Both the position numbers and the translations under genes were made by a program. Shown in pieces: positions 34,020-58,941 of a stretch of DNA of 64,000 nucleotides; the stretch's first letter is position 1, and each line of letters begins with the position of its first letter. The notes below the pieces were generated by a model that searched no databases, was not told the origin of the DNA, and saw only the letters and a program-made list of their open reading frames with translations. Source of the DNA: Patescibacteria group bacterium (GTDB lineage: Bacteria > Patescibacteriota > Saccharimonadia > CAILAD01 > BJGX01); contig JAPLVO010000008.1 in NCBI GenBank assembly GCA_026397045.1, positions 20,850 to 84,849 of the forward strand, written 5' to 3'.

Positions 34020-35294
34020 TTATAAATACTTATTTAGGCTATTCACATACTTAATAATACTTGCATTGCCAGATCTATTAGCGTACATCTGCATGTTGCC
34101 AATAATTTTGCGATTAGCCTTTATGTCTTCTGCAGTATCAAGCTTACCTAGTTTTTTCTGTTCTTGCGAAAACAAACCTGCGTAACATTTTTTAACTGCA
34201 TCATGCTCACCAATCTCCCCAAAAGCTTTTAGCGCAGTATAATAGTCCCCTTTAGAGAAATAATATGCACCCTTGTTGTGATATATAGAATTATTAAGTT
34301 TAGCCCGATCAAGGGAATACTGGGCGAAGTTGAGGGCTTTTTTGTATTCGTTTCCTCGCATAAAATAAATTGCACCATTGTGGCCAGCCATATGAATAAG
34401 CTTAGGCTCATCGCTTTGTTTGGCGTACTTTAGGGCCTTAGCGTAGCTAGAACTGCCACAAAAATCTACCACGACATTATTATAGGCAGCTGCCAGGTTC
34501 TTTTCGACAATGTCGCGCTGACTACTGAGTATGTAGGCAATACGGGCAGACTCTAGCAGTGACTCGGCAGAAACATCGTGGGTCTTAAAATATTGGTCGC
34601 TAACATCAAGTAGATTTATACTTACAATCTCTTCGATAGGTAATAAATTCTGGTTAGGCTTTTTGTAGTTAGCGAAAGTTCCACTGGTGGCCTCAATATC
34701 AGCGCCCTTAAAATGCAGTGCGACATGACCCGGATAAGTCTTTATTTCTAGGTCCTTAATATCATGTCTTAGCGAATAAAGGTGTATATATAATGTAACA
34801 ATTTGGTTGCAATCACCCTCCAGCATATTTTTGCCCGGATCCTTCAAGAGTTCTCCAAAAGTACAAGATTTGCGGTATTTGTAGCGCCCAGCATGCGGGG
34901 ACAAGTATGACATTATACTGCGCAGGTATTGCAGCTGCTCAGCATGCTCGGAGAGATTTTTGCTATCTATGCCAGCTGCACTAATCTCGGCCAAGACTTG
35001 ATCTACAGAATGTTTGTTTTTAGACAAATAAATCTCAAAGCTGCTGGCAATGGCCAGAGAGTTATTATAGAGCTCGCGCCTTTTTGCTTTTTTTAGGTAT
35101 TTATAGCCGCGGTATTTGAATTCACTCCAAAGATTAATACCTATAATGTTGTTTTGCAAGAACCAGTCTAGATCTTTCCTGATATCATCTTTAGTTTGGT
35201 GCTCATCTAGCTTGGCAAAAAACTTAGCCACCCTGCGCTCGCTAGGGTCAGTGTTATTACTAAATAAATAAAATATTTTTTGAAAAATGTTCAT
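34020..35294 (-). CDS. hypothetical protein with TPR/Sel1-like repeats
   Basis: C-terminal half shows an A/Y/G-rich helical-repeat pattern. No catalytic motif. Confidence 0.35.
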   Translation of the reverse strand: MNIFQKIFYLFSNNTDPSERRVAKFFAKLDEHQTKDDIRKDLDWFLQNNIIGINLWSEFKYRGYKYLKKAKRRELYNNSLAIASSFEIYLSKNKHSVDQVLAEISAAGIDSKNLSEHAEQLQYLRSIMSYLSPHAGRYKYRKSCTFGELLKDPGKNMLEGDCNQIVTLYIHLYSLRHDIKDLEIKTYPGHVALHFKGADIEATSGTFANYKKPNQNLLPIEEIVSINLLDVSDQYFKTHDVSAESLLESARIAYILSSQRDIVEKNLAAAYNNVVVDFCGSSSYAKALKYAKQSDEPKLIHMAGHNGAIYFMRGNEYKKALNFAQYSLDRAKLNNSIYHNKGAYYFSKGDYYTALKAFGEIGEHDAVKKCYAGLFSQEQKKLGKLDTAEDIKANRKIIGNMQMYANRSGNASIIKYVNSLNKYL

Positions 35295-38579: not shown

Positions 38580-39953
38580 CTAGGCCCTGCTTACTAGGCT
38601 ACCAATGGGTGTATCAGATAGTATCAAGCTAAAATTATCAGTCAAATGTTTTCTTATTGAGTCGGAAAGTGCAAAATTTTTATCTTTTCTGGCACTATCA
38701 TAGCTGTCTATCAGCTCGAGTATTGTATCGTGGAGTGGATCGTCAAATACTAGCTGAAGCCCAAATACATCATCGACTAAGCGCATAGCTTCTCTGGCGT
38801 CTAAAGTATAAATTTTACCCTCTATAATTTTAAGGGCAGCTAGAGCCCTAGGAGTGTTTAGGTCATCCCTTAGAGCAGAGTTGAACTCTTCTAAGAACTT
38901 ATCAACCGAGCCTGTTTGGTCCATTTCTGATAATTGTCCTACTCTAGCAAGCATCAAATTATCTACATACACCCTTAAGCTCTTCACCCTCTCATGGGCT
39001 GAGTTAATGTCCTCTATGTCTAGGTCCATTCTAGTTCTATAGTGAGCACTCATTACTAAGTACCGATAAGCCATAGGGTGGTTAATATCATTCATTACCA
39101 TGGTATTGCCGAGTGATTTACTCATCTTGGTGGATCCTAGACTCAAATGCTCATTGTGCATATATATGTTGGCTTGCTTACCCCCACACTGGGCAAGCTC
39201 ATTTTCATGATGAGGGAATTTAAGGTCTACTCCACCGGTGTGAATATCGAAGTTATTTGCTAATAACTCCCCGCTCATAGCAGAACACTCGATATGCCAG
39301 CCTGGTCTACCTGGATAAAGACTAGTACCAATCTTAAAATCCCACTGCGGCTCACCTGGCTTACTGGCCTTCCACAGCACAAAATCAGCAACTCCTATTT
39401 TCTGATCTTGATCGTCCGTAACTCTGGGTTTAGCTGTGAAGTCGAGGTTTACAAGCCTACCGTATGTCTTGCCTGTCGCCTGATAATTCTTAATGCTAAA
39501 ATATACACTTCCTGAAGATATATATGCAACCCCTTGCTCTCTTAAATCTAAAATTATCTTCTGCATTGAATCTATAAAGTCGGTAGCTCTGGGTAGATGA
39601 CTTATATCCCCTCTTTTTACCCCTACTTTCTCAATGTCTTCTGTAAATAAGTCCGTGTACTTGTCTGCCAGTCTCCCAAGCGCAGTCATTGGCTCATCAT
39701 CTGGGTAAATTTGCTTTGATTTAGCTATCATCTTGTCGTCAATATCTGTGATATTCATTACCCACTCGACATCATGCTGCTCGACATGCCTTATAACCCT
39801 TTGGAGCAAGTCGGGTAATAAAAAGGCCCTCAGGTTGCCTACATGAACATGGTCGTAGACCGTGGGCCCACAGCTATATATGGTTACCCGATTAGAATTG
39901 ATTGGCTTTAATTCTACTTTGGTATTTGTTAGTGAGTTGTATAGCTTGAGCAT
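38580..39953 (-). CDS. cysS: cysteinyl-tRNA synthetase
   Basis: HIGH-type HVGN, KMSKS, Zn-binding Cys. Confidence 0.9.
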   Translation of the reverse strand: MLKLYNSLTNTKVELKPINSNRVTIYSCGPTVYDHVHVGNLRAFLLPDLLQRVIRHVEQHDVEWVMNITDIDDKMIAKSKQIYPDDEPMTALGRLADKYTDLFTEDIEKVGVKRGDISHLPRATDFIDSMQKIILDLREQGVAYISSGSVYFSIKNYQATGKTYGRLVNLDFTAKPRVTDDQDQKIGVADFVLWKASKPGEPQWDFKIGTSLYPGRPGWHIECSAMSGELLANNFDIHTGGVDLKFPHHENELAQCGGKQANIYMHNEHLSLGSTKMSKSLGNTMVMNDINHPMAYRYLVMSAHYRTRMDLDIEDINSAHERVKSLRVYVDNLMLARVGQLSEMDQTGSVDKFLEEFNSALRDDLNTPRALAALKIIEGKIYTLDAREAMRLVDDVFGLQLVFDDPLHDTILELIDSYDSARKDKNFALSDSIRKHLTDNFSLILSDTPIGSLVSRA

Positions 39954-39955
39954 TA

Positions 39956-40495
39956 TTAACTATTATATACCTTTCTTAATACTTCTGCAGTATGCCTGCA
40001 GTCTTCAAGCGCATCATGCCGCCCTCGCGTTGGCAGTCCAAAATATTCAAATGTAGCTTCACTTCTTATAATATCACCGCGTCCTTTTTTAACCATATGC
40101 ATATATGCCAGGCTCCAAATATCTAAATAATGATAATCGTGCTCATATATATCCTTACCTACCGAATTCAGCATTTTAGAAAGCATGGTGTGGTCTAGCA
40201 TTTCATTCCAGCTTGCTAGATATATTTCTGTTCCAAATTTGCTTAAAAATATCTCAATTACATCCTCCTCCATAGGAGCACTATTTAAAATACCCTGTGT
40301 AATTCCATGTACATCAAATGACTCCTTGGGCATATTTGAAACATCTTGCTTGATGTAGCTTAGGAAACTATCTTTTTCTTTCAGGCTTTGTTTATCTAGC
40401 AGTACTGCCCCAAGCTGGATTGGCAAGGACTTTTTGAGATCCAGTCCGGTGGTTTCGAAGTCGATTAAAAGTATGTCTTTAGAAAAGCCTCGCAT
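39956..40495 (-). CDS. DEDDh 3'-5' exonuclease (DnaQ/oligoribonuclease-like)
   Basis: Exo I LLIDFETTGLD and Exo III HDALEDCRHTAEVL motifs. Confidence 0.7.
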   Translation of the reverse strand: MRGFSKDILLIDFETTGLDLKKSLPIQLGAVLLDKQSLKEKDSFLSYIKQDVSNMPKESFDVHGITQGILNSAPMEEDVIEIFLSKFGTEIYLASWNEMLDHTMLSKMLNSVGKDIYEHDYHYLDIWSLAYMHMVKKGRGDIIRSEATFEYFGLPTRGRHDALEDCRHTAEVLRKVYNS

Positions 40496-40496
40496 C

Positions 40497-41096
40497 CTAA
40501 AAGGCCTGCCTATTGTCTAATGCCCTACTCAATGTCAGCTGATCGGCGTACTCTAAATCCCCACCAATCGGCAATCCATGAGCTAGCTTGCTAATTTTGC
40601 CAGTATAGCCCTGATCTATAAGCTTGCGCGATATGTAAATTGAAGTAGTCTCACCTTCAATATTAGGGTTGGTGGCAAGGATGATTTCTTCGGGCTCTAC
40701 TAACGAGACTCTATCTATAAGACTTTGGATTTCCAAATCATCTGGTCCGATACCGTCAATAGGGCTTATTACGCCATGTAGTATATGATATTGGCCTCTA
40801 AATAAGCCCGTTCTCTCTAGCGCTACTATATCCATTGGGCTAGATACTACAGCTATAAGATCGGCTGTCCTGCTGGTGCTTGAGCATATAGGGCATAAAT
40901 CACCCGAGGCATAATTCTTGCAGGTATGACACCTTTGGAGACCTTTCTTGAGCTCTAGCACTACCCTGCCGAATTGCTCGCTATCACCGTTGGCGAGTAA
41001 ATAAAAAACCATTCGCTCGGCAGACTTTGCGCCAATCGATGGCAACTTAGAAAACTCATCTATTAGATTAGTAATATTATCTGGGAGAATCTGCAT
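40497..41096 (-). CDS. recR: recombination protein RecR
   Basis: HhH, C4 zinc finger CHTC...CPIC, Toprim domain. Confidence 0.9.
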   Translation of the reverse strand: MQILPDNITNLIDEFSKLPSIGAKSAERMVFYLLANGDSEQFGRVVLELKKGLQRCHTCKNYASGDLCPICSSTSRTADLIAVVSSPMDIVALERTGLFRGQYHILHGVISPIDGIGPDDLEIQSLIDRVSLVEPEEIILATNPNIEGETTSIYISRKLIDQGYTGKISKLAHGLPIGGDLEYADQLTLSRALDNRQAF

Positions 41097-41445: not shown

Positions 41446-42939
41446 CTATTGTATCTGATATAGCCTAGCTTCGCTATATCCAGCCGAAAAAGTACTAACC
41501 AGCTTCCAGCTAGATGGGACCTGATCGTAATAATCATGCTGCCCTGTCTTGCCTATAACCCATACTCTTCCCGACTGGATGTCATTATAAGAGTCTAAGT
41601 AGATGCCCTTATCATATATCAAGCCAGATTCACCATAGCCGTTCGGCCTACCCTGCTTTGTGTATAGAAATATATCTAAGCCAGTTCTGTTGTAATAGCT
41701 ACTATCAAAATAGACATACAATTCTCCGGCGATAAGCTTGTCATCAGGCTTGAAGCTACTCTCAAGGCCACTCATTACGGTGCTCATTTGATGATTAGAC
41801 TGTGAATTAACATTTCTAATTCCAACCAGCTGAGAACTCACCACAATAAATAGTAGTAGTGCTGCTAGGATTTTATTTTTGGCGTTAATCTCAGATATCG
41901 CCAGAGCCAATAGCATGCATAATCCAATGGCCGCAAACACAAAATACCGCTCATGGTAGATTGGCCTAAAGAAAGATATTGAAAGTGCAAATAGTATGGG
42001 GAAAAAGCTAAAGAGTAATATAAGCCTAGAGAAGTGGGCTTTTGTTTTGTCATTTATGGTATGAGCTACTATTACAACAAGCAAAATAACAGGAACTACC
42101 CAGTACAATACTGGCCATAAAGCACGGCCATCGGTAAATGTAGTAAACTGCCATATGGTATCGTTAAGAGTCATGGCTGACGCCCTAGATAACCAGCCAA
42201 GGCCCTGCCCCCTAGTTAGTTGGCTCAGCATATTTGGCACCCATGGCATAAAAAGTATTACTGCCGCAAGATTAGCTAGCCACCATCGCCAATTAGTTAA
42301 TATGGAAATCTTTTTGCTACCTGTTTGCATGAATATAGCCACTACATAAATCCAGAAGCTAATCACTACGAGTGCGGTAAAATAATGCGTATAAAGGCCA
42401 GCCGTGATGCCAGCTACATATATGATATAACCCCTCCAATCTTTTTGATTTTGGGTTATATATATAACACCCAGCATCGCTACAAGCAGAAATACTCCTA
42501 GCACGCCATACATCCTAGCTTCCTGGCTATAGCGAATTAGAAATGGGTTGAGGGCTAAAATAAAGCCTGCCAGCGCAGCTACATTGTGCTTTTTACCTAC
42601 CTTCAACACAATAAAGTAGCCTAACCCTACAACAACCACGCCAAATACAGCACTAAGTGACCGTAAAGCCAGAGCTGAACTGCCAAATAACAAACCCCAA
42701 CCATGCAAGAGCTCGTAATACAGTGGCGGGTGTACATCCCTGGCCGAGCCGAGCCAAACACCGAGCCAATCTTTACTAGAGAGCATAATACTGAATCCTT
42801 CATCGTGCCATATGCTTGATTTAGTAATGCCGAAGGCTCTAGTAACTACAGCTAAAATGATAATTAAGACTAGAACCAATAGCCAATGCCTATTTAGCGT
42901 CTTGGAAAATTTATTAAAACTATTTTTTATACTTACCAC
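41446..42939 (-). CDS. GT-C fold membrane glycosyltransferase (ArnT/PMT_2-like)
   Basis: About 12 TM helices. A DE-containing first periplasmic loop (SIWHDEGFSIM). Confidence 0.5.
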   Translation of the reverse strand: MVSIKNSFNKFSKTLNRHWLLVLVLIIILAVVTRAFGITKSSIWHDEGFSIMLSSKDWLGVWLGSARDVHPPLYYELLHGWGLLFGSSALALRSLSAVFGVVVVGLGYFIVLKVGKKHNVAALAGFILALNPFLIRYSQEARMYGVLGVFLLVAMLGVIYITQNQKDWRGYIIYVAGITAGLYTHYFTALVVISFWIYVVAIFMQTGSKKISILTNWRWWLANLAAVILFMPWVPNMLSQLTRGQGLGWLSRASAMTLNDTIWQFTTFTDGRALWPVLYWVVPVILLVVIVAHTINDKTKAHFSRLILLFSFFPILFALSISFFRPIYHERYFVFAAIGLCMLLALAISEINAKNKILAALLLFIVVSSQLVGIRNVNSQSNHQMSTVMSGLESSFKPDDKLIAGELYVYFDSSYYNRTGLDIFLYTKQGRPNGYGESGLIYDKGIYLDSYNDIQSGRVWVIGKTGQHDYYDQVPSSWKLVSTFSAGYSEARLYQIQ

Positions 42940-43660
42940 GTATCAACTGCCAGCGTATCTTAGCTAAGTCACCGAAGGTTTGTATTGAGGCCTTTATGGG
43001 TGATGTACCGCTAATTTTGCTTCCTTGCTTAATGTCATGCCAATCAGGCACATCGATAATACCAATCGTGTAGCCTTTTTTTCTAGCTATCGCTAGCACC
43101 TCCATATCAAAGCCCCAGCTATCGATCGTCTGTAAGGGGAATATTGATTGTGCCGATTCTTTGGTGAACCCCTTGAAGCCACACTGGGTATCGGCTATAC
43201 CTGGTAGTAGAACCATCTGAACTAACATATTGCCAGCTCCTGAAATTAACTTACGGATACCTTTATGGCTCTTTTGAAGGTCCCTAACGCATATAGCAAG
43301 TTGGCTGCCGGATTGCATTAGGCTAACAGCTTCCTTGATGTATTTGAGGGGTGTCGCTAAATCTGCATCCATAAAAATAATATACTGCCCCTTGGCCTCT
43401 AGCATACCCTTTTTGACTTGCAGGCCTTTAATAAACTTACCTTTAGGCTTCGGGCCAACATCGATGACTTTGATTTTATTAAAAACTTTAGAATGAGCAT
43501 TTACTTCCTTGATGGTGTCATCTGGGCTTCTTGCATCAACCACCAAGACCTCGATATTGAGCTTTTCTTTGCTAGCGTACTTGTGTAGCTGATCTAGTGT
43601 TGGTCCTATCCTGCCCTGCTCATTATAGGTTGGTATTACAATACTTATTAGGTCTTTCAT
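42920..43660 (-). CDS. GT2 polyprenyl-phosphate glycosyltransferase (DPM1/GtrB-like)
   Basis: ISIVIPTYNE, DAD (IIFMDADLATP), QCGFK motifs. Confidence 0.8.
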   Translation of the reverse strand: MKDLISIVIPTYNEQGRIGPTLDQLHKYASKEKLNIEVLVVDARSPDDTIKEVNAHSKVFNKIKVIDVGPKPKGKFIKGLQVKKGMLEAKGQYIIFMDADLATPLKYIKEAVSLMQSGSQLAICVRDLQKSHKGIRKLISGAGNMLVQMVLLPGIADTQCGFKGFTKESAQSIFPLQTIDSWGFDMEVLAIARKKGYTIGIIDVPDWHDIKQGSKISGTSPIKASIQTFGDLAKIRWQLIRGKYKK

Positions 43661-45222
43661 TGATTTATCTCGCAGGCACTAAATAGTAGCTTGCCATTAA
43701 AGTCTGAATAGAAATCCTTGACTGTGGCATTAGGGAATTTTGCCTTAACAATAGCTACCTGTTTATCGTGGTCGGCTCCAGCTGGCACTATTATAAGGAT
43801 ATTTGTAGTATTAGCTATTGGTAGGTCTCTTAGCTGGGCAGTATCCAGTAGACTATACTGAGACTTTTTATGGGTTAGATACTCGATTGTGTTGGCCTCA
43901 TAACCGCCCATAATAACATAATTACTTCGTGCGGGATTATTTGTAGAGATCAAATATTTGGCGATTGCCACTGAGCCCTCATTGTAGGCTTCATAGGTCT
44001 TGGCATCCTGAGCCCACGATACGAAGTATTGCCGATATGCCTGAATCAGGGATAGGGCCATGAGCACACAAACCAAGAATAAGCCTGTGATTCGGGCCAG
44101 CCTATTGATAGGAAAGGTCTGATACCACATATAAAGCAAGTAATTTACTCCCATGCCGGCCATAATTAGAACTGGCACGGCTGTGCCTATGGATCTTAGA
44201 GCGTGAGGCAAACCTTCTGCCGTCAAAAGAGATGGCAATAACATTGATCCAAAAACAACCAGAAGCAATGCATACTTAGGTTTGGCAAAGTTAAATAGGC
44301 ACATGACTAGGCCCAAAATAAACATTATGCCCACGAAAATATTTAGTAGCGGCTGGCCAGAAAAATTATGCCGATTATTACTATCCCCTATGTAATTGTA
44401 TTGCAAAATAGTTTTTGCTGTTCCAGAAAGCAGAGTTTGAATTGGCTGACCATTATTTAAGTTTTTGTTCAAAAAGCTGGTACCACCTGCCCTAGCTGTA
44501 GACCCTCCAGGGTCCTTGATGGTGGTATACAAAAGTGGGCTCATAACTGCCCCAAAAACAGCCATACTAAGAATTAGCTTCTTCCAATTACTCATTAGCC
44601 AGCTTCTTCTAAAGATTAGCATATATATAAAACCTGCGAAGATTGCTGTTAATATCATGGAGAACGCTGTGTATGTATAAAATCCTAAGCCTAGAGATAC
44701 TGCAGCAAGAATATAGTAAATCTTTTTATTAGTCTTATAGGCCTTAGCGCCAAATAGTAATATTAAGGCTATGAATAATGGCACTAGGCTAGCCCTAAAG
44801 CCATCGCGTTGAATTGTCACCACCCACGGATTGATTGCAAAAAAGAAAGCCGTGATCAGCGCTGTTCGGCGATTAAACCACTCTTTAGTGGCAAAGAATA
44901 CCACTATTACGCTAAGAACTCCGAAGAGTGCAGGTGCAACTCTCAGAGCTGTTATTGTATTTCCCATCGCTAGGACAAAAACAGCCTGGAAATAAAAAAA
45001 CAATGCCTCGCGGGGGCCATTAGTATTATAAATAATCCTTAGGTCGCGGTTTTCTAGGATCTTGAATATATCTAGTCCGTTTGCTGCTTCATCTGGATGT
45101 AAACCTGGCGGGAGTGTATTTAGCTGGTAGAATCTAAAAAATATAGCTAATGCGACTATTGCCAGAAGCAAAAACCAGACCATATTTTTCCTTATAAAAA
45201 TGAGTGTTTTGTTATTTTTCAT
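43657..45222 (-). CDS. GT-C fold membrane glycosyltransferase (ArnT/PMT_2-like)
   Basis: LHPDEAANGLD first-loop motif. 13-14 TM helices. 521 aa. Confidence 0.6.
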   Translation of the reverse strand: MKNNKTLIFIRKNMVWFLLLAIVALAIFFRFYQLNTLPPGLHPDEAANGLDIFKILENRDLRIIYNTNGPREALFFYFQAVFVLAMGNTITALRVAPALFGVLSVIVVFFATKEWFNRRTALITAFFFAINPWVVTIQRDGFRASLVPLFIALILLFGAKAYKTNKKIYYILAAVSLGLGFYTYTAFSMILTAIFAGFIYMLIFRRSWLMSNWKKLILSMAVFGAVMSPLLYTTIKDPGGSTARAGGTSFLNKNLNNGQPIQTLLSGTAKTILQYNYIGDSNNRHNFSGQPLLNIFVGIMFILGLVMCLFNFAKPKYALLLVVFGSMLLPSLLTAEGLPHALRSIGTAVPVLIMAGMGVNYLLYMWYQTFPINRLARITGLFLVCVLMALSLIQAYRQYFVSWAQDAKTYEAYNEGSVAIAKYLISTNNPARSNYVIMGGYEANTIEYLTHKKSQYSLLDTAQLRDLPIANTTNILIIVPAGADHDKQVAIVKAKFPNATVKDFYSDFNGKLLFSACEINQ

Positions 45223-45778
45223 TATTAAATATAAAGTACTTATACATTAGATAATTATAAAACAGAACAACTGCTACAGCTGCTAGCAGGGCGGTGTTTC
45301 TAATATCAAACTCTCTAGTAAAGGGTAGCCTTAGGTAGCTAGTGATGCTGTATGCTAGCTGAGCTGGCCAAATCCAGACATCAGTAAAAACAAAAAATAT
45401 TATTGGGCGAATTAAATATAGGCCAGCCGCAGTAATAATAAAAAACAAAACTAACTTAGCAGGAGATAGCTTTTTTGCCTTAAAGGTGAAGTTCTTATTG
45501 AATATGAAGCTATTAATCATTGCTGCAGTTCCAGATATTAACCCAGCCAAGACCACCCCAGTAATATTGTATTGTTTGCCAGCGAGAGTAAAGCTAAATA
45601 TTAAAAGGGTACTGGGTAGTATTGTGGCCGCAAGAATATTTAGCAGGGTAAAATCTACCAGGGTGTTAAGTATGCCAACTAGACCAAATCTACCAACTTG
45701 GGCAGCCTCGGAAAGTTTATTAGAAGGTTTGGATTTAGTGTTACTCATCATATTGCTTATGGATTTATTATAACTCAA
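45212..45778 (-). CDS. GtrA-family flippase-like membrane protein
   Basis: RFGLVGILNTLVDFTLLNIL with 4 TM helices. Confidence 0.6.
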   Translation of the reverse strand: MSYNKSISNMMSNTKSKPSNKLSEAAQVGRFGLVGILNTLVDFTLLNILAATILPSTLLIFSFTLAGKQYNITGVVLAGLISGTAAMINSFIFNKNFTFKAKKLSPAKLVLFFIITAAGLYLIRPIIFFVFTDVWIWPAQLAYSITSYLRLPFTREFDIRNTALLAAVAVVLFYNYLMYKYFIFNNEK

Positions 45779-45797: not shown

Positions 45798-47156
45798 TTA
45801 ATTTTGGCCGCCTCGGTCAATAGACTTAAAGAGGGTTTGCTCGGGCTGGAAGAATAGTTCGACTTCGCCAGTTGGACCATTACGATGCTTTTTTATAAGA
45901 ATATCCGCGATATTCTTCTTCTCAGAATCCTTCTCATAATAATCCTCGCGATATATAAACATCACTACATCAGCATCCTGCTCTATAGAACCAGATTCTC
46001 GTAAATCGGACAACTGCGGGATCTTTGGTGATCTTTGCTCAACCGACCTAGAAAGCTGAGACAAGGCAATAACAGGCACATTTAGCTCTCGGGCCATTCC
46101 CTTAAGACCGCGGGATATTTCGGATATCTCCTGAACCCTATTTTCTGATGAGTTACGGCCACTCATTAGCTGCAAATAATCTATAACTATCAGCCCTAGA
46201 TCGTGCTCAGATTGAAGACGGCGGGCTTTAGTTCTCATCTCCATAACATTTGCCATGGCAGAGTCGTCGATGTATATCGGCGCTTCGGACAATACCCCCA
46301 TGGCCTTATTGAGTTTTTCAAAATCCTTATCTTCAAGACTCCCCGTTCTAAGCTTCCAGCTATCAATGCCGGCCTCCGACGCGAGAAGTCTGTCTATCAA
46401 TTGCTCCTTGCTCATCTCTAGGCTAAATACGCCCACTGGGACACCCTCTTTAGTTGCGACATTCTGGGCAATATTTAACGCCAAGCTAGTTTTGCCCATA
46501 CTAGGCCGAGCCGCTAAGATAATTAAGTCGGATTTCTGTAGGCCTGCCAAAAGATTATCTATCCCGGAAAATCCAGTTGGAACTCCGCGCAGACTTTCTT
46601 TATCTTTGTGCAAGCTATCGAGACGATCAAAACTCTCGGCTAGGACATCCTTTATAGACACAAAGTTTTGCCTGAGGTGCTTTTGGCTGACATCGAAAAG
46701 TGTTTTCTCGGCATTATCCAATAAGCTATCGAGAGGCTGATCCTCGTCATAGGCCATTGTGTTAATTTGACTAGAGGCCTTGATTAGTCTTCGCAGAGTG
46801 GCCTTTTGGGCAACAAACTGGGCGTACTGCACTACATGCGCAGCTGATGGAACGCCATTAACAAGCTCCGTCAGGTAACTTGCGCCGCCCATACTCTTAA
46901 GTGTACCCTGCTTATCCAGCTCTTCAGAGAGTGTTACTACATCTAGCGGTTCGCGTTTTTCGTATAGACTAAGGATGGATTCAAATATATGACTATTTTT
47001 ATCTACATAAAAATCGTCAATATGCACTACATCGGCAATTTTAATTATTGCGTCTTTATCCATCAGTAGCGACCCAAGTAGGCTGGCTTCGGCCTGGGGG
47101 TTTTGCGGCGGTACCTTGACGCTCAGGACCTCTTTGGCTGTAAACTTCTTAGCCAT
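45798..47156 (-). CDS. dnaB: replicative DNA helicase
   Basis: DnaB N-terminal domain plus RecA-like core (Walker A ARPSMGKTSLALN). Confidence 0.9.
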   Translation of the reverse strand: MAKKFTAKEVLSVKVPPQNPQAEASLLGSLLMDKDAIIKIADVVHIDDFYVDKNSHIFESILSLYEKREPLDVVTLSEELDKQGTLKSMGGASYLTELVNGVPSAAHVVQYAQFVAQKATLRRLIKASSQINTMAYDEDQPLDSLLDNAEKTLFDVSQKHLRQNFVSIKDVLAESFDRLDSLHKDKESLRGVPTGFSGIDNLLAGLQKSDLIILAARPSMGKTSLALNIAQNVATKEGVPVGVFSLEMSKEQLIDRLLASEAGIDSWKLRTGSLEDKDFEKLNKAMGVLSEAPIYIDDSAMANVMEMRTKARRLQSEHDLGLIVIDYLQLMSGRNSSENRVQEISEISRGLKGMARELNVPVIALSQLSRSVEQRSPKIPQLSDLRESGSIEQDADVVMFIYREDYYEKDSEKKNIADILIKKHRNGPTGEVELFFQPEQTLFKSIDRGGQN

Positions 47157-48591
47157 CTATTACCTCTCCGCCCAGTATCGCCATCGCTGAACTGACTAAT
47201 TCTTCCTGAGAATCGATCTGAGTGGGCTTTTTAATAGCTTCCAGCTTGATAATTAGATGCATACTTCGACCATACACCTTGGTAAAGGCCTTCTCGACTA
47301 AACTAGTATTTCGTGGTTCAGCGATTCTATCCTTATGAAAGCTAAACCTACAGACGACCTCAATACTATCTTTGTAGACTCTAATCTCCGCTCCTTTCAG
47401 GACTGCATATAAAGAATTGTTGTAGTGCTTGATGACACTAAGCGACTTAATGAACAACTCCTCGCTGTCAGGTCTTAGTTTGGTCTCGGGCTCTAGGGTT
47501 TTACTCTTAGGGGCGCCAGCGGTGCTAGCACCCTCAATATTACCTACCTCTTTGTGTGAATTAACCTGGGCTGAGGCGAGAGCCATTGGCATTGTGGGCT
47601 GGGTGCTATTAGCCTGTGAATTTATGAACGATTTAGCTAGCCCAACCTGTAAAACTAGCTGCGGCAATGATGACTGACGAATATTTGACTGCACCCAGTG
47701 AAGGTTCTCAGCGAGGCCTAGTAGGAACTCATCACTGTACACATCCCCTTGTTGCAAATAACTCTGAATACTATCTAGCATCTGCTGGGCCAGCAGTGAA
47801 GTATCGGCGCCGGAGTCGTATAGCGCCTGTAAGAATGAAAGCATTTCCTTGATTTGATTGGCATCTCGGGCATCAAATATCTGTTTTATTTTAGTGCTAT
47901 CCTGTAGCCCTGTGAAGTCCGATATTATGCTAACCGTTATTGGCCCTTTAATGGCCGAGACTTGGTCTAATAAGCTAATTGCATCCCTAAAGCCACCCCG
48001 GCTGATCTTAGCAATCAAGTCCAGTGCCTTGTCTTCAATTATTATATTTTCTTGGTCTGCGATGTATCTTAAGTGCTTTGTCATATCAGAAGCAAGGATT
48101 GGCTTAAAATCGAATCTTTGCGTCCTGGATGTAATTGTCTCGGGCAGCTTGTGCGCTTCGGTGGTGGCAAAAATAAATACGACATGGGCAGGTGGCTCCT
48201 CGAGGGTCTTTAATAGGGCATTAAAGGCAGGGGTGGTGAGCATGTGTACTTCATCGATAATATAAACCTTGTACTCGAGCTTGGCAGGTAAAACCTGGAC
48301 TTTCTCTCTAAGGCTTCGAATTTCATCTATGCCGCGATTACTAGCCCCATCTATCTCTATTATATCGAGGTGGCTAGATATAGAATCCTCCTTATTTAGG
48401 CCGTTTAATTGCTTGGCGATAATCCTAGCAATGCTTGTTTTACCAACACCACGCGGCCCCGTAAGCAGATAAGCGTGACTATGTTTGCCCGTGGCTATAG
48501 CGTTAGTAAGAGTACTAACGACATGCTTCTGGCCAACTACCTCGCTGAAGTCAGCAGATCTATATTTACGATATAAAGCTAAATTAGACAA
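47149..48591 (-). CDS. dnaX: DNA polymerase III subunit gamma/tau
   Basis: AAA+ HAYLLTGPRGVGKTS, Zn module, sensor 2. Confidence 0.9.
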   Translation of the reverse strand: MSNLALYRKYRSADFSEVVGQKHVVSTLTNAIATGKHSHAYLLTGPRGVGKTSIARIIAKQLNGLNKEDSISSHLDIIEIDGASNRGIDEIRSLREKVQVLPAKLEYKVYIIDEVHMLTTPAFNALLKTLEEPPAHVVFIFATTEAHKLPETITSRTQRFDFKPILASDMTKHLRYIADQENIIIEDKALDLIAKISRGGFRDAISLLDQVSAIKGPITVSIISDFTGLQDSTKIKQIFDARDANQIKEMLSFLQALYDSGADTSLLAQQMLDSIQSYLQQGDVYSDEFLLGLAENLHWVQSNIRQSSLPQLVLQVGLAKSFINSQANSTQPTMPMALASAQVNSHKEVGNIEGASTAGAPKSKTLEPETKLRPDSEELFIKSLSVIKHYNNSLYAVLKGAEIRVYKDSIEVVCRFSFHKDRIAEPRNTSLVEKAFTKVYGRSMHLIIKLEAIKKPTQIDSQEELVSSAMAILGGEVIDG

Positions 48592-48649: not shown

Positions 48650-49192
48650 TTATATAGTAGAGATAAGCGCCTCTATGGCAGCCCAAGAAGGCTTGGTACC
48701 AGCCGGCACAACGATTGTGACTTCATCGCCTGGCTGAGCCTTGAAATAAGTGACACTGGCATAAAGAACTCGATATTTTATATCGCCAACCACTGCAACA
48801 TATTGGCCATTCTCGAGTGATATCTTGGCTATAATCTTTTTGCGTTCTACTGGACCAATCTGCTTGTATATAAAGCTACCGTCCTGAGCTATAGTTAGCT
48901 TGAGAGTGTCTCCTTCGACTAGCTTGGATTTAGAAGCATAATTAGCTGGTACTGGATAGACTTTGCCATCTGGACCAATCATATTCTGGCCATCAAACTG
49001 GCCTTCTATTATTTTACCAATGGAGTCCTGTGAGCCAGGCTGAACTAAATCTTGAAGCTTGGGCTCAGGCAAATCACTTGAACTAACGCCGAGCTTCTTA
49101 AGCTCTTCTTCTACCTGTTTAATAGTATCTTGAGCGACCTGCATTTGGGTCGCTAGATTCTGCATAATTTTCTGTTTATCTTTATCTATCAT
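48650..49192 (-). CDS. hypothetical protein (N-terminal coiled coil, C-terminal beta-rich domain)
   Basis: ORF with coding-like composition. No motif recognised. Confidence 0.35.
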   Translation of the reverse strand: MIDKDKQKIMQNLATQMQVAQDTIKQVEEELKKLGVSSSDLPEPKLQDLVQPGSQDSIGKIIEGQFDGQNMIGPDGKVYPVPANYASKSKLVEGDTLKLTIAQDGSFIYKQIGPVERKKIIAKISLENGQYVAVVGDIKYRVLYASVTYFKAQPGDEVTIVVPAGTKPSWAAIEALISTI

Positions 49193-54191: not shown

Positions 54192-55460
54192 TTATGGCCT
54201 TGGCAGCTTGATATCAATAGAGCTAGGCAGGCTGTTAGATAGCTGTGTTAGATATGAGGCTAATTCCGCCGATACCGCTGAACTCGCTATGAAATAAGTA
54301 ATCACTATAACTGCTGCAATCATCACGACAATTAGCAGACTGAGATATCCAGGGTTACGATTGTTGTGCATTACTAAGCCAGCTCTCATGCCATGAACAC
54401 GAACAACTCTTGCCCAGTACCCCACTTGCCAGGCAGTCCATACCGACCATAGGATATACAAAAAAGTCGAGAATGAGGATAATACAAGTATCTGAAGGCT
54501 CACGGCGGTTGTAGTATCTATTAGATAAACATTTATAGCTACCAGGCCAAGGCTAAGGCCGAAAAACAGCATCAAATGCAGCATCCATACGAACCCATAT
54601 TTAATACTGGCTAGAGGGTGGCTGAGGGTATACTTGAAGGCGGGGCTTAATTTAGCCGTTCCAGTTTCGGTGCCTATTGCAACGCTAGCCATCAACCAAA
54701 ACCTTAAGGTCGAATACGCTGCAATCATCATAATCAGCACCAATAATGCGCATAGGCACAGAAAAGCTTGCTGATATATAGAGCCATAGCCGAGCACATA
54801 TATAGCCAGTATGGTTAAAGCCGCAAACCCTAAAATAAGCATAAATACCATTACTTTTACAATCTTCTGTAGAAAGCTACCTAATATCTGGCTAGCTGAT
54901 TGTTTTAATGAATTAGAAAGCTTGGGCTCACGATTATCTAGCTGCTGATACCTGAACCTTAACAGTGCAGGAGTTATTAGGCTATCGGCAATAATACTAA
55001 CTAGAGCAATTATAAGTATGGTGCCTCCTAATACTATGAGCATGGATGTATTTTGGGCCGATACACCAGCCTTTAGCTCTATAAGCAGCTCATCGAGTTT
55101 TAAGACTGATAAATAGCGCAACTGAAATATCAAGATTGGCAAAATTACGAAAAATAAAACTCGAGCCCCTAATAAGTTTCTGGCTAATGACAGCTGGAAT
55201 ATGTCTGCAATCAAAACGGACTTCCAGGCCGAACTAACCATAGTGATAACTCCTGATTGAGCTGGCCTGGGAGCTGGGGCTTGAGTTGGAGTTGGCCTGG
55301 GAGCTGGAGCTCGAGTCGGAGTTGGCCTGGGAGGTGGAGCTGGAGCTCGAGTCGGAGTTGGCCTGGGAGCTGGGGCTGGCCTGGCAGCTGAAACCTTCGG
55401 ACTTTTTACAGTCGACATGCGTGAGACCCTTTTAATATCAATGTTTTTTGGTGTAGCCAT
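54192..55460 (-). CDS. polytopic membrane protein with N-terminal Pro/Thr/Ala-rich tandem repeats
   Basis: (RPTPTRAPAP)n N-terminus then about 8 TM helices. No family recognised. Confidence 0.4.
   Translation of the reverse strand: MATPKNIDIKRVSRMSTVKSPKVSAARPAPAPRPTPTRAPAPPPRPTPTRAPAPRPTPTQAPAPRPAQSGVITMVSSAWKSVLIADIFQLSLARNLLGARVLFFVILPILIFQLRYLSVLKLDELLIELKAGVSAQNTSMLIVLGGTILIIALVSIIADSLITPALLRFRYQQLDNREPKLSNSLKQSASQILGSFLQKIVKVMVFMLILGFAALTILAIYVLGYGSIYQQAFLCLCALLVLIMMIAAYSTLRFWLMASVAIGTETGTAKLSPAFKYTLSHPLASIKYGFVWMLHLMLFFGLSLGLVAINVYLIDTTTAVSLQILVLSSFSTFLYILWSVWTAWQVGYWARVVRVHGMRAGLVMHNNRNPGYLSLLIVVMIAAVIVITYFIASSAVSAELASYLTQLSNSLPSSIDIKLPRP
55258..55390 (-). repeat. ~33-bp tandem DNA repeat (~4 copies) encoding the P/T/A-rich repeats
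   Basis: TGGCCTGGGAGCTGGRGCTYGAGTYGGAGT units. One copy carries a 6-nt insertion. Confidence 0.6.
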
Positions 55461-55494: not shown

Positions 55495-56334
55495 CTATAG
55501 CGCAAAACTTCTTTTGATCTTTATGAACAATAAAATTCTAATTTTTACGAATAAAGGAAGGCTGGCTCTAGATTTTGAAAGCTCACTGGCAGGCCTACTA
55601 TTTATCAATTTAGTTAACTCGCTGAAGTACGAATAAGCAAGCTCCACACCATATCGGCTAGACTTAGGTAGGGACTTTATAGCTCCACTGGCTATTTTTA
55701 GATCCTTATTTATATCTTCTGTGATGTCAGTGATATCTTGCTGGGTTAGGTTCTTTGAAGATTTGCCAGGAAAATATAATCGGCCAAGATTACCAGAATC
55801 ATCGGAGATATCTCTTAGGAAATTTATCTTTTGGAATGCAGAGCCCAGTGCTCTGGCAGATGGCTTTAACTCCCTAAACTTTTTCTTATCACCGGCCACA
55901 AATACCATTAAGCACATTAGGCCCACAGCTTCAGCTGAGCCATATATATAATCACTGTACTCTTCTAGAGAATACCGCTTCTTTTTAATATCCATGCGCA
56001 TGCTATCCATGAATGAGTCGATCAAATCCATGGGTATACCGTACTCACGAACAACCAAGCAAAAACTATGGACAATTGGGTTAATGCTAAAACCCGTCTT
56101 TAAGGCTCTTTTGGTGTCAGCTGTTAGCTCATCGAGATATTCAGCCATTTCCTTAGGCCGCCATGTATCCACGACCTCGTCTGCTATTCTAACAAACCCG
56201 TAAATAGACACTATTGAGTCTGCCACTTTGGGGCTAAGGAGCTTAGTTGCAGATGAGAATGAGCTTGAATAAGAGAAGGTGATGTCTCGACTTAAGCGAA
56301 TGCTTATTTGGTTATATAGGCCAATATTAATCAC
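55495..56334 (-). CDS. crtB: phytoene/squalene synthase family (CrtB/CrtM-like)
   Basis: Asp-rich YGFVRIADEVVD and signature-2 LGSAFQKINFLRDISDDSGNLGRLYFP. Confidence 0.7.
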   Translation of the reverse strand: MINIGLYNQISIRLSRDITFSYSSSFSSATKLLSPKVADSIVSIYGFVRIADEVVDTWRPKEMAEYLDELTADTKRALKTGFSINPIVHSFCLVVREYGIPMDLIDSFMDSMRMDIKKKRYSLEEYSDYIYGSAEAVGLMCLMVFVAGDKKKFRELKPSARALGSAFQKINFLRDISDDSGNLGRLYFPGKSSKNLTQQDITDITEDINKDLKIASGAIKSLPKSSRYGVELAYSYFSELTKLINSRPASELSKSRASLPLFVKIRILLFIKIKRSFAL

Positions 56335-56339
56335 TGCTA

Positions 56340-57410
56340 CTACTTTTTCCTAGCCACACAGTATGAGGCGAGATTTCTTAAAAGATCTTCGAGCTCAGTA
56401 TCTAGGTTCATCCTATCCAATATTAATAAGGACTTTTTAAGATGATCATCTGCCGCAACAGTGACCTTAGCCCGTGCACCACATTCCTCGAGAATAACTC
56501 GGACTATCTTGGTGTCATGAATATTTATATCCGTCTTGCCCAGCCTAGTCTCAATGGCCTTCCATTGCAGTGGAGATGATAGCTTTTTAGCATAATACAT
56601 CAGTAGCGTTTGTTTACCTTCGCGAATATCTGAGCCGACTGGCTTACCTGTTTGTCGACTTGAGCCAAACATGCCAAGGAGGTCGTCTGCGAGCTGGAAA
56701 GCTTTGCCTAATTCAGAGCCAAACTCAGCAAAGAGCTTAAAAAGCTTACTATTTCCCCCGGCGGCGACAATGCCTAGTTGCATGGGATATGTAATAGTAT
56801 ATTGAGCAGTTTTATAAAAATTCACCTTTTCTATTTTACTTAGATTCAAATCTCCTCTAAGACCCGCCATGACATCTAATTGCTGCCCTGCTCCGGTATC
56901 GAAAAGTGTTTTTTGGAAATGCTTCATCATTTCGAACACCAGCTTGGGGTCGAGGTCGAGGCTGGTTAGCACTTCAAATGTAAAGAACTCATTTAGCTCC
57001 CCTGCTAAAATAGCGATGGACTCGGCAGTTTTCCTAGCAGGTTTATCATCTAGCAGCTTCTTGAACCTTTTTTCATATACTCCCGTAATATTTGCGCCGC
57101 CGTAGCGTGTGGTATCGCCGTCCATAATATCATCATGGATAAGTACGAAGTTATGAAAAATTTCTAACGATACAGATGCATCCAGGGCCTTAGCTATTTC
57201 TTTGCCGCCGGCAGCCCTATAGCCTAGTACCATTAAGGTTGGCCTGAGTCTCTTGCCGCCTCTGAGAATGAACTTCTTCATATCCAGCAGCAGCTTGGCA
57301 TAGACTGGATCAATCTTACTAGCCTCGGCTATTTTAAGATCATAGAAATCAGATAATCTACCATCTACCTCTGATTTAACAAACTTGTTTAATGCAATAA
57401 ATTTTTCCAT
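56340..57410 (-). CDS. polyprenyl diphosphate synthase (GGPP/FPP synthase, CrtE/IdsA-like)
   Basis: FARM LIHDDIMDGD and SARM FQLADDLLG. Confidence 0.8.
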   Translation of the reverse strand: MEKFIALNKFVKSEVDGRLSDFYDLKIAEASKIDPVYAKLLLDMKKFILRGGKRLRPTLMVLGYRAAGGKEIAKALDASVSLEIFHNFVLIHDDIMDGDTTRYGGANITGVYEKRFKKLLDDKPARKTAESIAILAGELNEFFTFEVLTSLDLDPKLVFEMMKHFQKTLFDTGAGQQLDVMAGLRGDLNLSKIEKVNFYKTAQYTITYPMQLGIVAAGGNSKLFKLFAEFGSELGKAFQLADDLLGMFGSSRQTGKPVGSDIREGKQTLLMYYAKKLSSPLQWKAIETRLGKTDINIHDTKIVRVILEECGARAKVTVAADDHLKKSLLILDRMNLDTELEDLLRNLASYCVARKK

Positions 57411-57411
57411 A

Positions 57412-58911
57412 CTACGCCTTAGTATCCTTCAAAATCCTTTCCATGACTAGCTTAGCACTAAGGGTCACCATCGGTATGCCGCCTCCAGGATAGGTGCTCG
57501 CACCGACAAAATAAAGGTTCTTTATATCCTTACTTTTATTGTGTGGCCTAAAATAGCCAGACTGCAAAAAGTGATGGCTCAGACCAAAAGCAGATCCGAT
57601 GTGCAAATTATATTTGTCTCTGAAATCTTCTGGCGTAAAAATAGATTCCACTTTTATTTTTTTCTCAATATCCAAATCAAACTCCGTCTTTAGCCTTGAT
57701 AGTACCTGCTTTCTAAGGCGTTTTATGCCAGACTGCCATTGCACCTTTGAATCAAGATTCGGAACCGGCACCAGTACATAGAATACACTCTTTCCTTTTG
57801 GTGCCAAGCTTGGGTCAGTCTTGGTAGGAATATAAGTATAAAACGAAGGATCCTTAGGAAGTTTTTTCTGATGGAATATTTCATCAAGATTATTTTTAAA
57901 GTCTTTACAGAGATATACATTATGATGAAGCATGCCCTCGCAGCTATCATCTACACCCCAATAGAATAGTAAGGCTGAGCTTGCCTGCTTATATGATTCG
58001 AGTTTTGTATTAGGAGTCGAAGGTCGATCTTTTTCATCAATCAATTTCATCTGAGAATATACTAAATCAGCATTGGCTACAATTGTATCCGCATAAAGTT
58101 TTTTGTTCTTATTTGTCCTAATACCGACTGCGGTTTTGTTTTCTATAATTATTTCTTCTACCGGTGTCGAGGTAATTATTTTACCCCCTAAATCTTTGAC
58201 CAGCTTTTCAATAGCCAAAGATAGTGAGTACATGCCACCCTTTGGATACCAAATACCCAATCCTGTTTCCATATAGCTCACCACGCTATAAACCGCTGGT
58301 GCCTCGTGCGGACTAACACCCAAATACATACTTTGAAAACTAAATAATTGCCTAAGGCGCTCATCTTTGAAATAACGCGAGACAAATTTATAGAGCTTAG
58401 ATAAGCCTCTCTTTTTGAATAATTGGGCACCACTTACGGGGCTGATGAAGTCGGTAATATTGCTAAAGTTTTTATCTATAAAGTTAGCCCTAGCGATTCT
58501 ATATATCTCCGATACATCGCCGAAAAATTTATAAAACTGCTCTGGGCCTTTAGGGTCAAACTTGGACAGCTCGCTTGCAAATTTTGGTAAATTACTACTT
58601 ACAGTAATTCTACTTTTATCGGCGAATGCAACTTGATAGTTTGGCTCTAGCTGTAACAACTCGATATAGTCATCGAAATTTTTACCACAGTAGCTGAAGG
58701 TCTCATAGAGGGTATCGGTCATCATGAGAAGGGTCGGCCCCATGTCAAAAGTGTAGCCACTTTTCTCAATACGGTGTGCTCGGCCGCCAATTTTATCTTC
58801 CTTTTCGACAATAGTGACTTCGTAGCCATTTTTAAGCAAACGAGCAGCCGCACACATCCCGCCTATGCCGCCGCCAACTATAATTACACTTTTGAGTTTA
58901 TTATTTTTCAT
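57412..58911 (-). CDS. crtI: phytoene desaturase family (CrtI/CrtN)
   Basis: N-terminal FAD fold VIIVGGGIGGMCAAARL...EKEDKIGGRA. About 500 aa amine-oxidase fold. Confidence 0.8.
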   Translation of the reverse strand: MKNNKLKSVIIVGGGIGGMCAAARLLKNGYEVTIVEKEDKIGGRAHRIEKSGYTFDMGPTLLMMTDTLYETFSYCGKNFDDYIELLQLEPNYQVAFADKSRITVSSNLPKFASELSKFDPKGPEQFYKFFGDVSEIYRIARANFIDKNFSNITDFISPVSGAQLFKKRGLSKLYKFVSRYFKDERLRQLFSFQSMYLGVSPHEAPAVYSVVSYMETGLGIWYPKGGMYSLSLAIEKLVKDLGGKIITSTPVEEIIIENKTAVGIRTNKNKKLYADTIVANADLVYSQMKLIDEKDRPSTPNTKLESYKQASSALLFYWGVDDSCEGMLHHNVYLCKDFKNNLDEIFHQKKLPKDPSFYTYIPTKTDPSLAPKGKSVFYVLVPVPNLDSKVQWQSGIKRLRKQVLSRLKTEFDLDIEKKIKVESIFTPEDFRDKYNLHIGSAFGLSHHFLQSGYFRPHNKSKDIKNLYFVGASTYPGGGIPMVTLSAKLVMERILKDTKA

Positions 58912-58941
58912 TATTTAGTGAATATATAATATAATAATACT

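Follow-up and report, generated by a model that had tools for sequence, protein, structure and literature searches.

A putative multi-component glycosylation cassette at a fixed position between dnaB and ybaB-recR in Saccharibacteria

Organization of the cassette

A cassette of four genes, coding for a GtrA-family protein, a family 2 glycosyltransferase (GT2) and two membrane-embedded glycosyltransferase-like proteins of the GT-C fold (GT-C A and GT-C B), was analysed in a 64,000-nucleotide (nt) stretch of contig JAPLVO010000008.1 from a freshwater member of the Saccharibacteria (TM7), a lineage of the candidate phyla radiation (CPR). This whole stretch is referred to as the window, and coordinates are those of the window unless another locus is named. 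The cassette region (41446-45778, minus strand) lies between dnaB and ybaB-recR and is probably a multi-component system for transmembrane glycosylation that has been inherited vertically. The Pfam matches of all four proteins exceeded the gathering scores, hundreds of full-length homologues were found for each protein and dozens of species share the complete arrangement; the four-gene observation is real and far beyond chance. In order of transcription the genes are:

45212-45778, minus strand: gtrA, 188 amino acids (aa); PF04138 (GtrA_DPMS_TM), E 1.2e-11, 45.3 bits against a cut-off of 26.1
43657-45222, minus strand: GT-C A, 521 aa; PMT_2, E 8e-16
42920-43660, minus strand: GT2, 246 aa; PF00535 (Glycos_transf_2), E 1.5e-21
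41446-42939, minus strand: GT-C B, 497 aa; PMT_2, E 4e-10; PMT (PF02366), E 1e-7, 32.1 bits against a cut-off of 22.7

Successive genes of the cassette overlap by 11, 4 and 20 nt, and the borders are narrow, with 19 nt between dnaB and gtrA and 33 nt between GT-C B and ybaB. An earlier note, made from the DNA letters without database searches, had named these four genes at the same positions, flanked by dnaX and dnaB upstream and by ybaB and recR downstream, and the Pfam and NCBIfam matches bear out both the identities and the flanks. Its description of the genes as packed like an operon also stands, although the overlaps it gave (8-30 nt) differ from those measured. The flanking genes are:

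47149-48591, minus strand: dnaX; TIGR02397, 362 bits, above the cut-off of 250; NF004046, 383 bits, under the cut-off of 400
45798-47156, minus strand: dnaB; TIGR00665, 598 bits
41104-41412, minus strand: ybaB; Pfam/NCBIfam matches
40497-41096, minus strand: recR; Pfam/NCBIfam matches
39956-40495, minus strand: RNase_T-family exonuclease; Pfam/NCBIfam matches
38580-39953, minus strand: cysS, assigned from conserved synteny and the translation of the open reading frame (ORF) only

Together these genes form one co-directional string (180-aa hypothetical protein, dnaX, dnaB, gtrA, GT-C A, GT2, GT-C B, ybaB, recR, exonuclease, cysS) in which no gap exceeds 58 nt; dnaX and dnaB overlap by 8 nt, and the gaps from ybaB to recR, recR to the exonuclease and the exonuclease to cysS measure 7, 1 and 2 nt. 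The sole convincing terminator-like hairpin of the string follows rplL (49280-49265), with no other found from rplL through cysS. The same arrangement came out of gene calls made independently on three further assemblies of this organism.

A sigma-70-like match (10/12) at 45794-45767 overlaps the dnaB-gtrA junction. Because promoter-like sites are as frequent in shuffled sequence (30 observed compared to 29.2), an internal cassette promoter at this junction is possible but unproven. At the upstream end of the string, the 180-aa ORF directly ahead of dnaX (48650-49192, minus strand) has no Pfam match, holds the same position in most Saccharibacteria loci with 52-86% identity, and is preceded closely by a promoter-like site (49257-49229) and the rplL terminator-like hairpin.

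The GT2 and GtrA-family proteins

The multi-component systems described by Rismondo, Gillis and Gründling (PMC8035078) consist of a GT-A enzyme that makes a sugar linked to undecaprenyl phosphate (C55-P-sugar), a GtrA-type (or Wzx-type) translocator, and a GT-C enzyme with an acidic loop motif that transfers the sugar outside to a glycopolymer such as lipoteichoic acid, wall teichoic acid or a cell-wall polysaccharide. The cassette GT2 would correspond to the first of these by its family, its relatives and its conserved residues. Among solved structures it ranked closest to the catalytic domain of the dolichyl-phosphate mannose synthase (DPMS) of Pyrococcus furiosus (PfDPMS, 5MLZ; E 1.1e-13), followed by GtrB and ArnC, and its alignment to GtrB (5EKP; E 6.7e-7) covered the N-terminal 129 residues only. 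The D98-x-D100 motif, R126 and R136 are invariant in 50 of 50 orthologues and S140 is kept in 49. These arginines and serine align with Arg117, Arg131 and Ser135 of PfDPMS, identified as dolichyl-phosphate ligands in a 2026 structural paper (PMC12992685).

No hydrophobic segment or transmembrane (TM) helix was found in the 246 aa of GT2, and a scan for an amphipathic helix that might bind the membrane peripherally gave no significant result, as 6.4% of shuffles scored at least as high. About ten orthologue clusters carry the Joint Genome Institute (JGI) product name "dolichyl-phosphate beta-glucosyltransferase". GT2 also has conserved D-T-Q-C-G-F-K and W-x-F-D-x-E motifs, which may be ALG5-like; a text search for the motif TQCGFK found no papers. 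The protein is thus described here as a putative soluble polyprenyl-phosphate hexose synthase of the GT-A fold, similar to DPMS and, going by annotation only, to ALG5.

The gtrA product has about four hydrophobic or TM segments within 178-188 aa, in keeping with the GtrA-type flippases of PMC8035078 (small proteins of 3-4 TM helices). Residues N38, D42, N89 and N94 and a C-terminal N..Y..F motif are conserved among 50 orthologues, and a single-sequence search of the PDB gave no match. Pfam now joins GtrA and the DPMS TM domain in one family (PF04138), and the DPMS TM domain has been proposed both to anchor the enzyme and to flip its product (PMC12992685). The GtrA-family protein is therefore a putative translocator of lipid-linked sugar, a membrane partner of GT2, or both.

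The start of gtrA is ambiguous. The longest ORF begins at a TTG codon (45778), and independent gene calls start at Met10 or Met11 (45751/45748; 178-179 aa). One of these two methionines is probably the true start, in which case the gap to dnaB becomes 46-49 nt.

In one relative (locus L033, 6201-8423, plus strand) GT2 and GT-C B make up a single in-frame ORF of 740 aa, in which the GT2 domain is followed by a linker of about 25 aa, TM1 and an IWHDEG motif. This ORF is either a natural fusion or a frameshift error in the assembly of a metagenome-assembled genome; allowing for such an error, the fusion would support a functional coupling of the two proteins as well as the predicted topology.

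The two GT-C proteins

GT-C A and GT-C B share only 25% identity over 144 aa, so they are ancient paralogues. Single-sequence searches of the PDB gave no match to either. With profiles, GT-C A gave weak matches to AglB and ArnT (ArnT, E 0.006) and GT-C B had no real match. AlphaFold2 models built on 35-sequence alignments were confident, with a pLDDT of 87 for GT-C A and 88.6 for GT-C B. When compared to solved structures with Foldseek, both models matched ArnT best, GT-C A to 5F15 (E 8e-10, TM-score 0.56) and GT-C B to 5EZM (E 3.8e-8, TM-score 0.61), with TM-scores to ArnT of 0.55-0.62 and identities of 11-14% over both proteins. Below ArnT came STT3/AglB/PglB (the next best for GT-C A), ALG9/12, AftA and Pmt4. 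GT-C folds were matched with a probability of 1.0, compared to TM-scores below 0.15 for transporters and permeases.

Directly after TM1, D44-E45 of GT-C A is invariant in 35 orthologues and H45-D46-E47 of GT-C B is kept in at least 90% of orthologues. The acidic motif is placed outside the membrane because it follows TM1 in proteins with positively charged N-termini, and many further Arg, Lys and His residues of the outside loops are invariant. GT-C A also has a predicted C-terminal alpha/beta domain outside the membrane. The GT-C enzymes of PMC8035078 are described with 8-13 TM helices and, in a loop outside the cell, an acidic motif that is either DxD or a modified form of it; by their fold matches and the motif after TM1 both proteins fit this description. 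The fold and the conserved loop-1 motif argue that the two proteins are catalytic, as the earlier note had supposed, and are not permeases. Its label "ArnT/PMT-like" fits as a resemblance at the level of Pfam clan and fold; PMT orthology does not follow from it (bacterial Pmt equivalog NF058602, 19.8 bits against a cut-off of 800). GT-C B also matched NF052499 (E 2.5e-17) with 62 bits against a cut-off of 900.

The GT-C A family is large and uncharacterised. Its profile matched 3,586 clusters (50% identity) at E <=1e-30 among 1.84 billion representatives, and the names of 10 distant relatives were uninformative ("hypothetical" or "ArnT-like"). R94, R139, W..FPxNxxAR and YFxAW are conserved in the wider lineage.

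Conservation of the dnaB-ybaB slot

The DnaB protein was searched against 185,579 species-representative genomes, which gave 80 loci, nearly all labelled Saccharibacteria, Saccharimonadia or Patescibacteria. These loci were compared with the window proteins by tblastn and then with hidden Markov models built from orthologue alignments; 70 loci were informative and the contigs of the other 10 were too short. The closest relatives (DnaB identity 85-88%) were freshwater metagenome-assembled genomes. The arrangements after dnaB were:

31 loci (species-level genomes): full order gtrA, GT-C A, GT2, GT-C B, ybaB, recR
9 loci: gtrA, GT-C A, GT2, then a different gene of 580-655 aa on the opposite strand
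1 locus: gtrA, GT-C A, GT2, recR; another A/B pair lies about 5 kb off
5 loci: variant cassette with a GT2 of 262-299 aa and a protein of 584-600 aa; a GT-C A-like protein of 400-418 aa in four, none in L048
5 loci: a single GT-C A-like gene between dnaB and ybaB ("A-only")
7 loci: dnaB, (ybaB), recR with nothing between (L052, L066, L068, L071, L072, L074, L075)
12 loci: other genes after dnaB

In 51 of the 70 informative loci a GT-C glycosylation module thus fills the slot between dnaB and ybaB-recR, with variant cassettes in 15 loci beyond the 31 full ones. DnaB identity among the full-type loci ranges from 88% down to 68%, the identity of the GT-C proteins falls to 33-45%, and the proteins of the cassette have diverged in parallel with the flanking genes. 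In a neighbour-joining tree of DnaB the full type forms one large clade, with the "A-only" group as its sister; the cassette is present in every informative locus of the full clade, and swaps of the second GT-C are nested at least three times inside it. The genes that take its place in the variant arrangements matched PMT_2 in six of seven cases tested (all but L058). Judging from these comparisons, GT-C A forms the conserved core of the slot, GT-C B is a deeply divergent enzyme in a variable position, and the arrangement is old and vertically inherited.

The earlier note had presented the cassette as an insertion into a normally contiguous block, and had allowed that a gene order universal in the lineage would mean otherwise. 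A recent horizontal insertion of a glycosylation island inside dnaX-dnaB-ybaB-recR would account for the seven loci of other CPR lineages in which dnaB-(ybaB)-recR is uninterrupted, for the exchange of the second GT-C in several sublineages, and for the lower GC content of the cassette (0.37-0.43 compared to 0.41-0.46 in the flanks) with its dip to 0.37-0.38 around gtrA. Low GC is, however, expected for genes of membrane proteins rich in Ile, Phe and Leu. The identical order in 31 genomes that span 68-88% DnaB identity and form one clade, the parallel divergence of cassette and flanks and the narrow borders of 19 and 33 nt all stand against it, as does the failure to find an integrase, transposase, tRNA or repeat at the cassette borders or any mobile-element gene. 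With the same order throughout a large Saccharibacteria clade and no patchiness, the recent-insertion reading is largely refuted and we regard it as very improbable. Since the order is shared clade-wide and other CPR lineages are without the cassette, an insertion can be defended only if it happened long ago, near the base of the Saccharibacteria.

A wholesale exchange of the cassette by gene transfer in "type 2" genomes was also considered and rejected, as ybaB, recR and cysS are more diverged there too.

Additional adjacent pairs of GT-C A and GT-C B were observed 5-8 kb from dnaB in loci L055 (18418-21320, minus strand) and L066 (16894-20095, plus strand), the latter being empty between dnaB and recR, which suggests that the A/B pair can relocate as a unit.

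Transposon sequencing of the corresponding locus in Southlakia epibionticum

The cultured Southlakia epibionticum ML1 is the only Saccharibacterium with genome-wide transposon sequencing (Tn-seq). In Table S1 of Wang et al. (2023; PMC10633639) its gene order is dnaX (SEML1_0402), dnaB (0401), a family 39 glycosyltransferase (GT39; 0400), ybaB (0399) and recR (0398), which is the "A-only" arrangement. SEML1_0400 is listed there as a "glycosyltransferase family 39 protein" of 1461 nt with PMT_2 at residues 71-226, and is flagged as a core family. Its insertions went from 55 in the input DNA to 4, 1 and 1 at T0, T1 and T2, with the calls GD, ES and ES. By comparison, recR was called only GD, ybaB had just 7 insertions in the input DNA, and two other GT-C genes of Southlakia (0705 and 0876) were non-essential. 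The GT-C of the slot is therefore probably essential. A separate set of genes, SEML1_0898-0900 (gtrB-like GT2, GtrA and family 4 glycosyltransferase), was called GD/ES/ES, GD/GD/ES and GD/ES/ES, respectively. The text of that paper contains no discussion of these glycosylation genes.

A proposed glycosylation pathway and its alternatives

A pathway in which a lipid-linked sugar is made inside, flipped and transferred outside, the logic that the earlier note had put forward, fits the genes present and their operon-like packing, the folds of the proteins with their conserved catalytic and ligand residues, and the deep conservation of the locus. In the first step the soluble GT2, working at the cytoplasmic face of the membrane and perhaps docked on the GtrA-family protein, would load a hexose (perhaps glucose, according to annotation only) from a nucleotide sugar onto polyprenyl (undecaprenyl) phosphate. 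MraY, FtsW and MurG are encoded in the same window, from which it follows that the organism uses a polyprenyl-phosphate carrier. The GtrA-family protein would then help the lipid-linked sugar to the outer leaflet, where two GT-C enzymes of the ArnT fold, GT-C A (conserved over the Saccharibacteria) and GT-C B (variable between lineages), would each pass the sugar to a different extracytoplasmic acceptor. We infer the direction of the pathway, the shared donor and the two acceptors. Two acceptor sites or two sugars had been predicted from the presence of two GT-C enzymes; as the cassette has one GT2, a single lipid-linked hexose serving two acceptors is the simplest reading, and two sugars are less likely. 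As to the nature of the acceptor, we tentatively favour a cell-wall glycopolymer or lipoglycan, a surface protein such as a pilin or surface-layer (S-layer) protein being a possible but somewhat weaker candidate and a lipid a distinctly improbable one. Literature searches on GT39, O-glycosylation, teichoic acid, the S-layer and wall polymers in Saccharibacteria found nothing specific.

Several points weigh against this pathway. GT2 does not have the membrane anchor that GtrB and CsbB typically carry, and its sugar may be glucose on the strength of JGI product names only. None of the four proteins reached the cut-off of an NCBIfam equivalog, all scores being far below (for GT2, 37.6 bits against 529 for ArnC NF007986 and 41 bits against 500 for PgfS). 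Once the wider GT-C A lineage with its "A-only" proteins is considered, only Glu45 of the D-E pair is invariant, and because the Asp is not kept, catalysis is less certain in the short "A-only" relatives, the Southlakia type among them. SEML1_0400 is taken as a homologue of GT-C A from its position and domain layout only, and its essentiality may reflect polarity on ybaB. Finally, tight synteny may be neutral in the small genomes of CPR bacteria and is no proof of co-regulation with replication.

The second step could also be read otherwise. The GtrA-family protein could act mainly as an anchor or activator of the TM-less GT2, in effect a split DPMS, and not as a dedicated flippase. This would alter the second step only and, although rather unlikely, it is suggested by the missing hydrophobic segment in GT2 and by its best solved relative, PfDPMS, whose GtrA-like TM domain is fused to the enzyme, belongs to the same Pfam family and has the proposed dual role mentioned above. 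A soluble GT-A enzyme that needs a separate membrane protein is moreover a recognised variant (PMC8035078), as in GacI with GacJ, and may be compared with DPM1 and DPM3. Against it, gtrA and GT2 are separated by GT-C A, the polar-pocket residues of PfDPMS are reported to be absent in GtrA proteins (PMC12992685), and the amphipathic-helix scan of GT2 was not significant. A different chemistry would apply if the cassette carried out protein O-mannosylation of the actinobacterial Ppm1/Pmt type, with GT2 making polyprenyl-phosphate mannose and the GT-C proteins acting as protein O-mannosyltransferases. GT-C B passes the PF02366 threshold, PMT_2 is matched by both GT-C proteins, an Asp-Glu pair characteristic of GT39 is present in loop 1 of each (D44-E45 and D46-E47), GT2 is nearest to an enzyme that synthesises Dol-P-Man, and the pilins of Saccharibacteria are predicted targets of O-glycosylation (10.1101/2024.11.25.624915). 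PMT_2 also spans GT-C enzymes of teichoic acids and cell-wall polysaccharides (PMC8035078, Table 2), however, and the low-scoring match to the bacterial Pmt equivalog came from GT-C B alone. Pmt4 folds (E 6.5e-5 to 1.2e-4, TM-score 0.49-0.54) come far behind ArnT (E 8e-10 to 3.8e-8, TM-score 0.56-0.62) and the JGI names of GT2 orthologues are those of glucosyl- and not mannosyltransferases, leaving O-mannosylation unlikely.

The transfer step itself would fall away if the GT-C-like proteins were non-catalytic permeases or scaffolds, for which one could cite the lack of a sequence-level PDB match for either single protein and the loss of Asp44 in the wider GT-C A lineage. That explanation is hard to reconcile with the confident GT-C folds, the very low TM-scores of transporters, the invariant acidic residues of loop 1 together with the Arg, Lys and His of the outside loops, and the linkage of the genes to a polyprenyl-phosphate GT2 and a GtrA-family protein, and we consider it extremely unlikely.

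Comparison with known systems

The proposed three-step glycosylation pathway has its closest counterpart in Gram-positive bacteria, where CsbB/GtlA/GttA, GtcA and YfhO/GtlB/GttB provide the same list of parts (a GT-A enzyme that makes polyprenyl-phosphate sugar, a protein of the GtrA family and a GT-C of the PMT_2 type whose loop carries an acidic motif), and the cassette is filed with these multi-component systems. In Listeria serotype 4b one donor set, GttA with the predicted GtcA, supplies two GT-C enzymes, GtlB acting on lipoteichoic acid and GttB on wall teichoic acid (PMC8035078). The cassette differs in that its parts lie in one operon, whereas those of Firmicutes are often scattered, in that its GT2 has no membrane anchor, in its fixed position between dnaB and ybaB-recR and in its host, a CPR epibiont. 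Its positional orthologue in Southlakia seems to be essential, while cells can usually do without glycosylation of their teichoic acids.

The GtrA-GtrB-GtrC system for O-antigen glucosylation of phages and Shigella likewise combines, in co-transcribed genes, a GtrA protein, a lipid-hexose GT2 and a GT-C. GtrB, however, has C-terminal TM helices, the cassette has two GT-C proteins and is neither prophage nor mobile, and its host is a monoderm without O-antigen. A phage-type GtrABC cluster was rejected on the TM-less GT2, the dnaB and ybaB flanks, the absence of an integrase or tRNA nearby and the position kept in 31 species. The Arn pathway shares ArnT as the best solved match of both GT-C proteins and ArnC as a detectable relative of GT2, but identity to ArnT is low and the host has no lipid A; this pathway was rejected as a likeness at fold level only, with the ArnC equivalog far from its cut-off and no arnA/B/D/E/F in the window.

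GT2 shares its DxD motif and its Arg/Arg/Ser ligands with type III DPMS (5MLZ), which was considered alongside the eukaryotic ALG5 and DPM1, and the GtrA-like TM module is also present in the cassette, although as a separate gene. Type III DPMS has been described with a DADxQHPP motif, Arg117/Arg131/Ser135/Lys178 and a fused GtrA-like TM domain with Asn248/Asn277/Phe338, under a definition restricted to hyperthermophilic archaea (PMC12992685). Membership of GT2 in this type was rejected because DADxQHPP is replaced by DADLATPL and the TM domain is not fused. The actinobacterial pair of Ppm1 and Pmt (GT39) likewise joins a polyprenyl-phosphate sugar synthase to a GT-C; orthology to GT39 Pmt was rejected on the NF058602 score, the lack of a PMT match for GT-C A and the stronger ArnT folds. 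The Pgf operon of Streptococcus mutans (PgfS with PgfM1/PgfM2) combines one GT2 with two membrane GT-C-like proteins. The PgfS score of the cassette GT2 does not indicate orthology, no PgfM model was matched and the cassette has no epimerase gene.

Significance for the Saccharibacteria envelope

Saccharibacteria are obligate epibionts whose surface mediates attachment to host bacteria, and glycosylation in this group has been called unexplored in a study of their pili (10.1101/2024.11.25.624915). The machinery is of a kind already known and its presence would not surprise a glycobiologist. What is new is descriptive: the system occurs in a CPR lineage, a GT-C slot is fixed class-wide inside a string of replication and recombination genes, a conserved first GT-C is paired with a swappable second one, and the GT-C of the slot is probably essential. 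For the biology of the Saccharibacteria envelope the cassette offers a testable donor pathway, and SEML1_0400 and its partners are a defined and probably important target. A bolder and doubtful extension is that the dnaB-adjacent GT-C of the A lineage makes an envelope glycoconjugate that is essential, is specific to Saccharibacteria and is required for growing on the host, that its fixed location within the dnaX-dnaB...ybaB-recR transcription unit links glycosylation of the envelope to replication of the chromosome and that the swappable second GT-C tunes the chemistry of the surface; if true, such tuning between lineages could bear on host range or phage evasion, for example.

Other features of the window

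Otherwise the window consists of core chromosome. It carries ribosomal protein genes with an L10 leader, genes for topoisomerase I, tRNA synthetases and DprA, and a cluster for division and the cell wall in which a penicillin-binding protein accompanies MraY, FtsW and MurG. A carotenoid-type isoprenoid cluster (55495-61550), unexpected in a lineage of minimal metabolism, may produce a glycosylated carotenoid or another isoprenoid lipid. It contains:

55495-56334: phytoene/squalene-synthase-like gene
56340-57410: polyprenyl diphosphate synthase
57412-58911: CrtI-family phytoene desaturase; TIGR02734, 512 bits against a cut-off of 238
59517-61550, plus strand: fusion of a UbiA-type prenyltransferase and a GT2 domain (HpnB/CruG-like), 677 aa; NF009608, 304 bits against a cut-off of 217

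Five ORFs of 253-424 aa, all on the minus strand, have no Pfam match (54192-55460, 61572-62411, 63035-63796, 34020-35294 and 15455-16282). Two of the five flank the carotenoid-type cluster, and those at 54192-55460 and 61572-62411 are without an NCBIfam match as well. On the plus strand the window also encodes DprA (7624-8502; DNA_processg_A, 3e-76) and an 890-aa coupling-protein ATPase similar to TrwB/TraG (12472-15144), which agree with reports of natural competence and of an unusual type IV secretion system in Saccharibacteria (PMC10633639).

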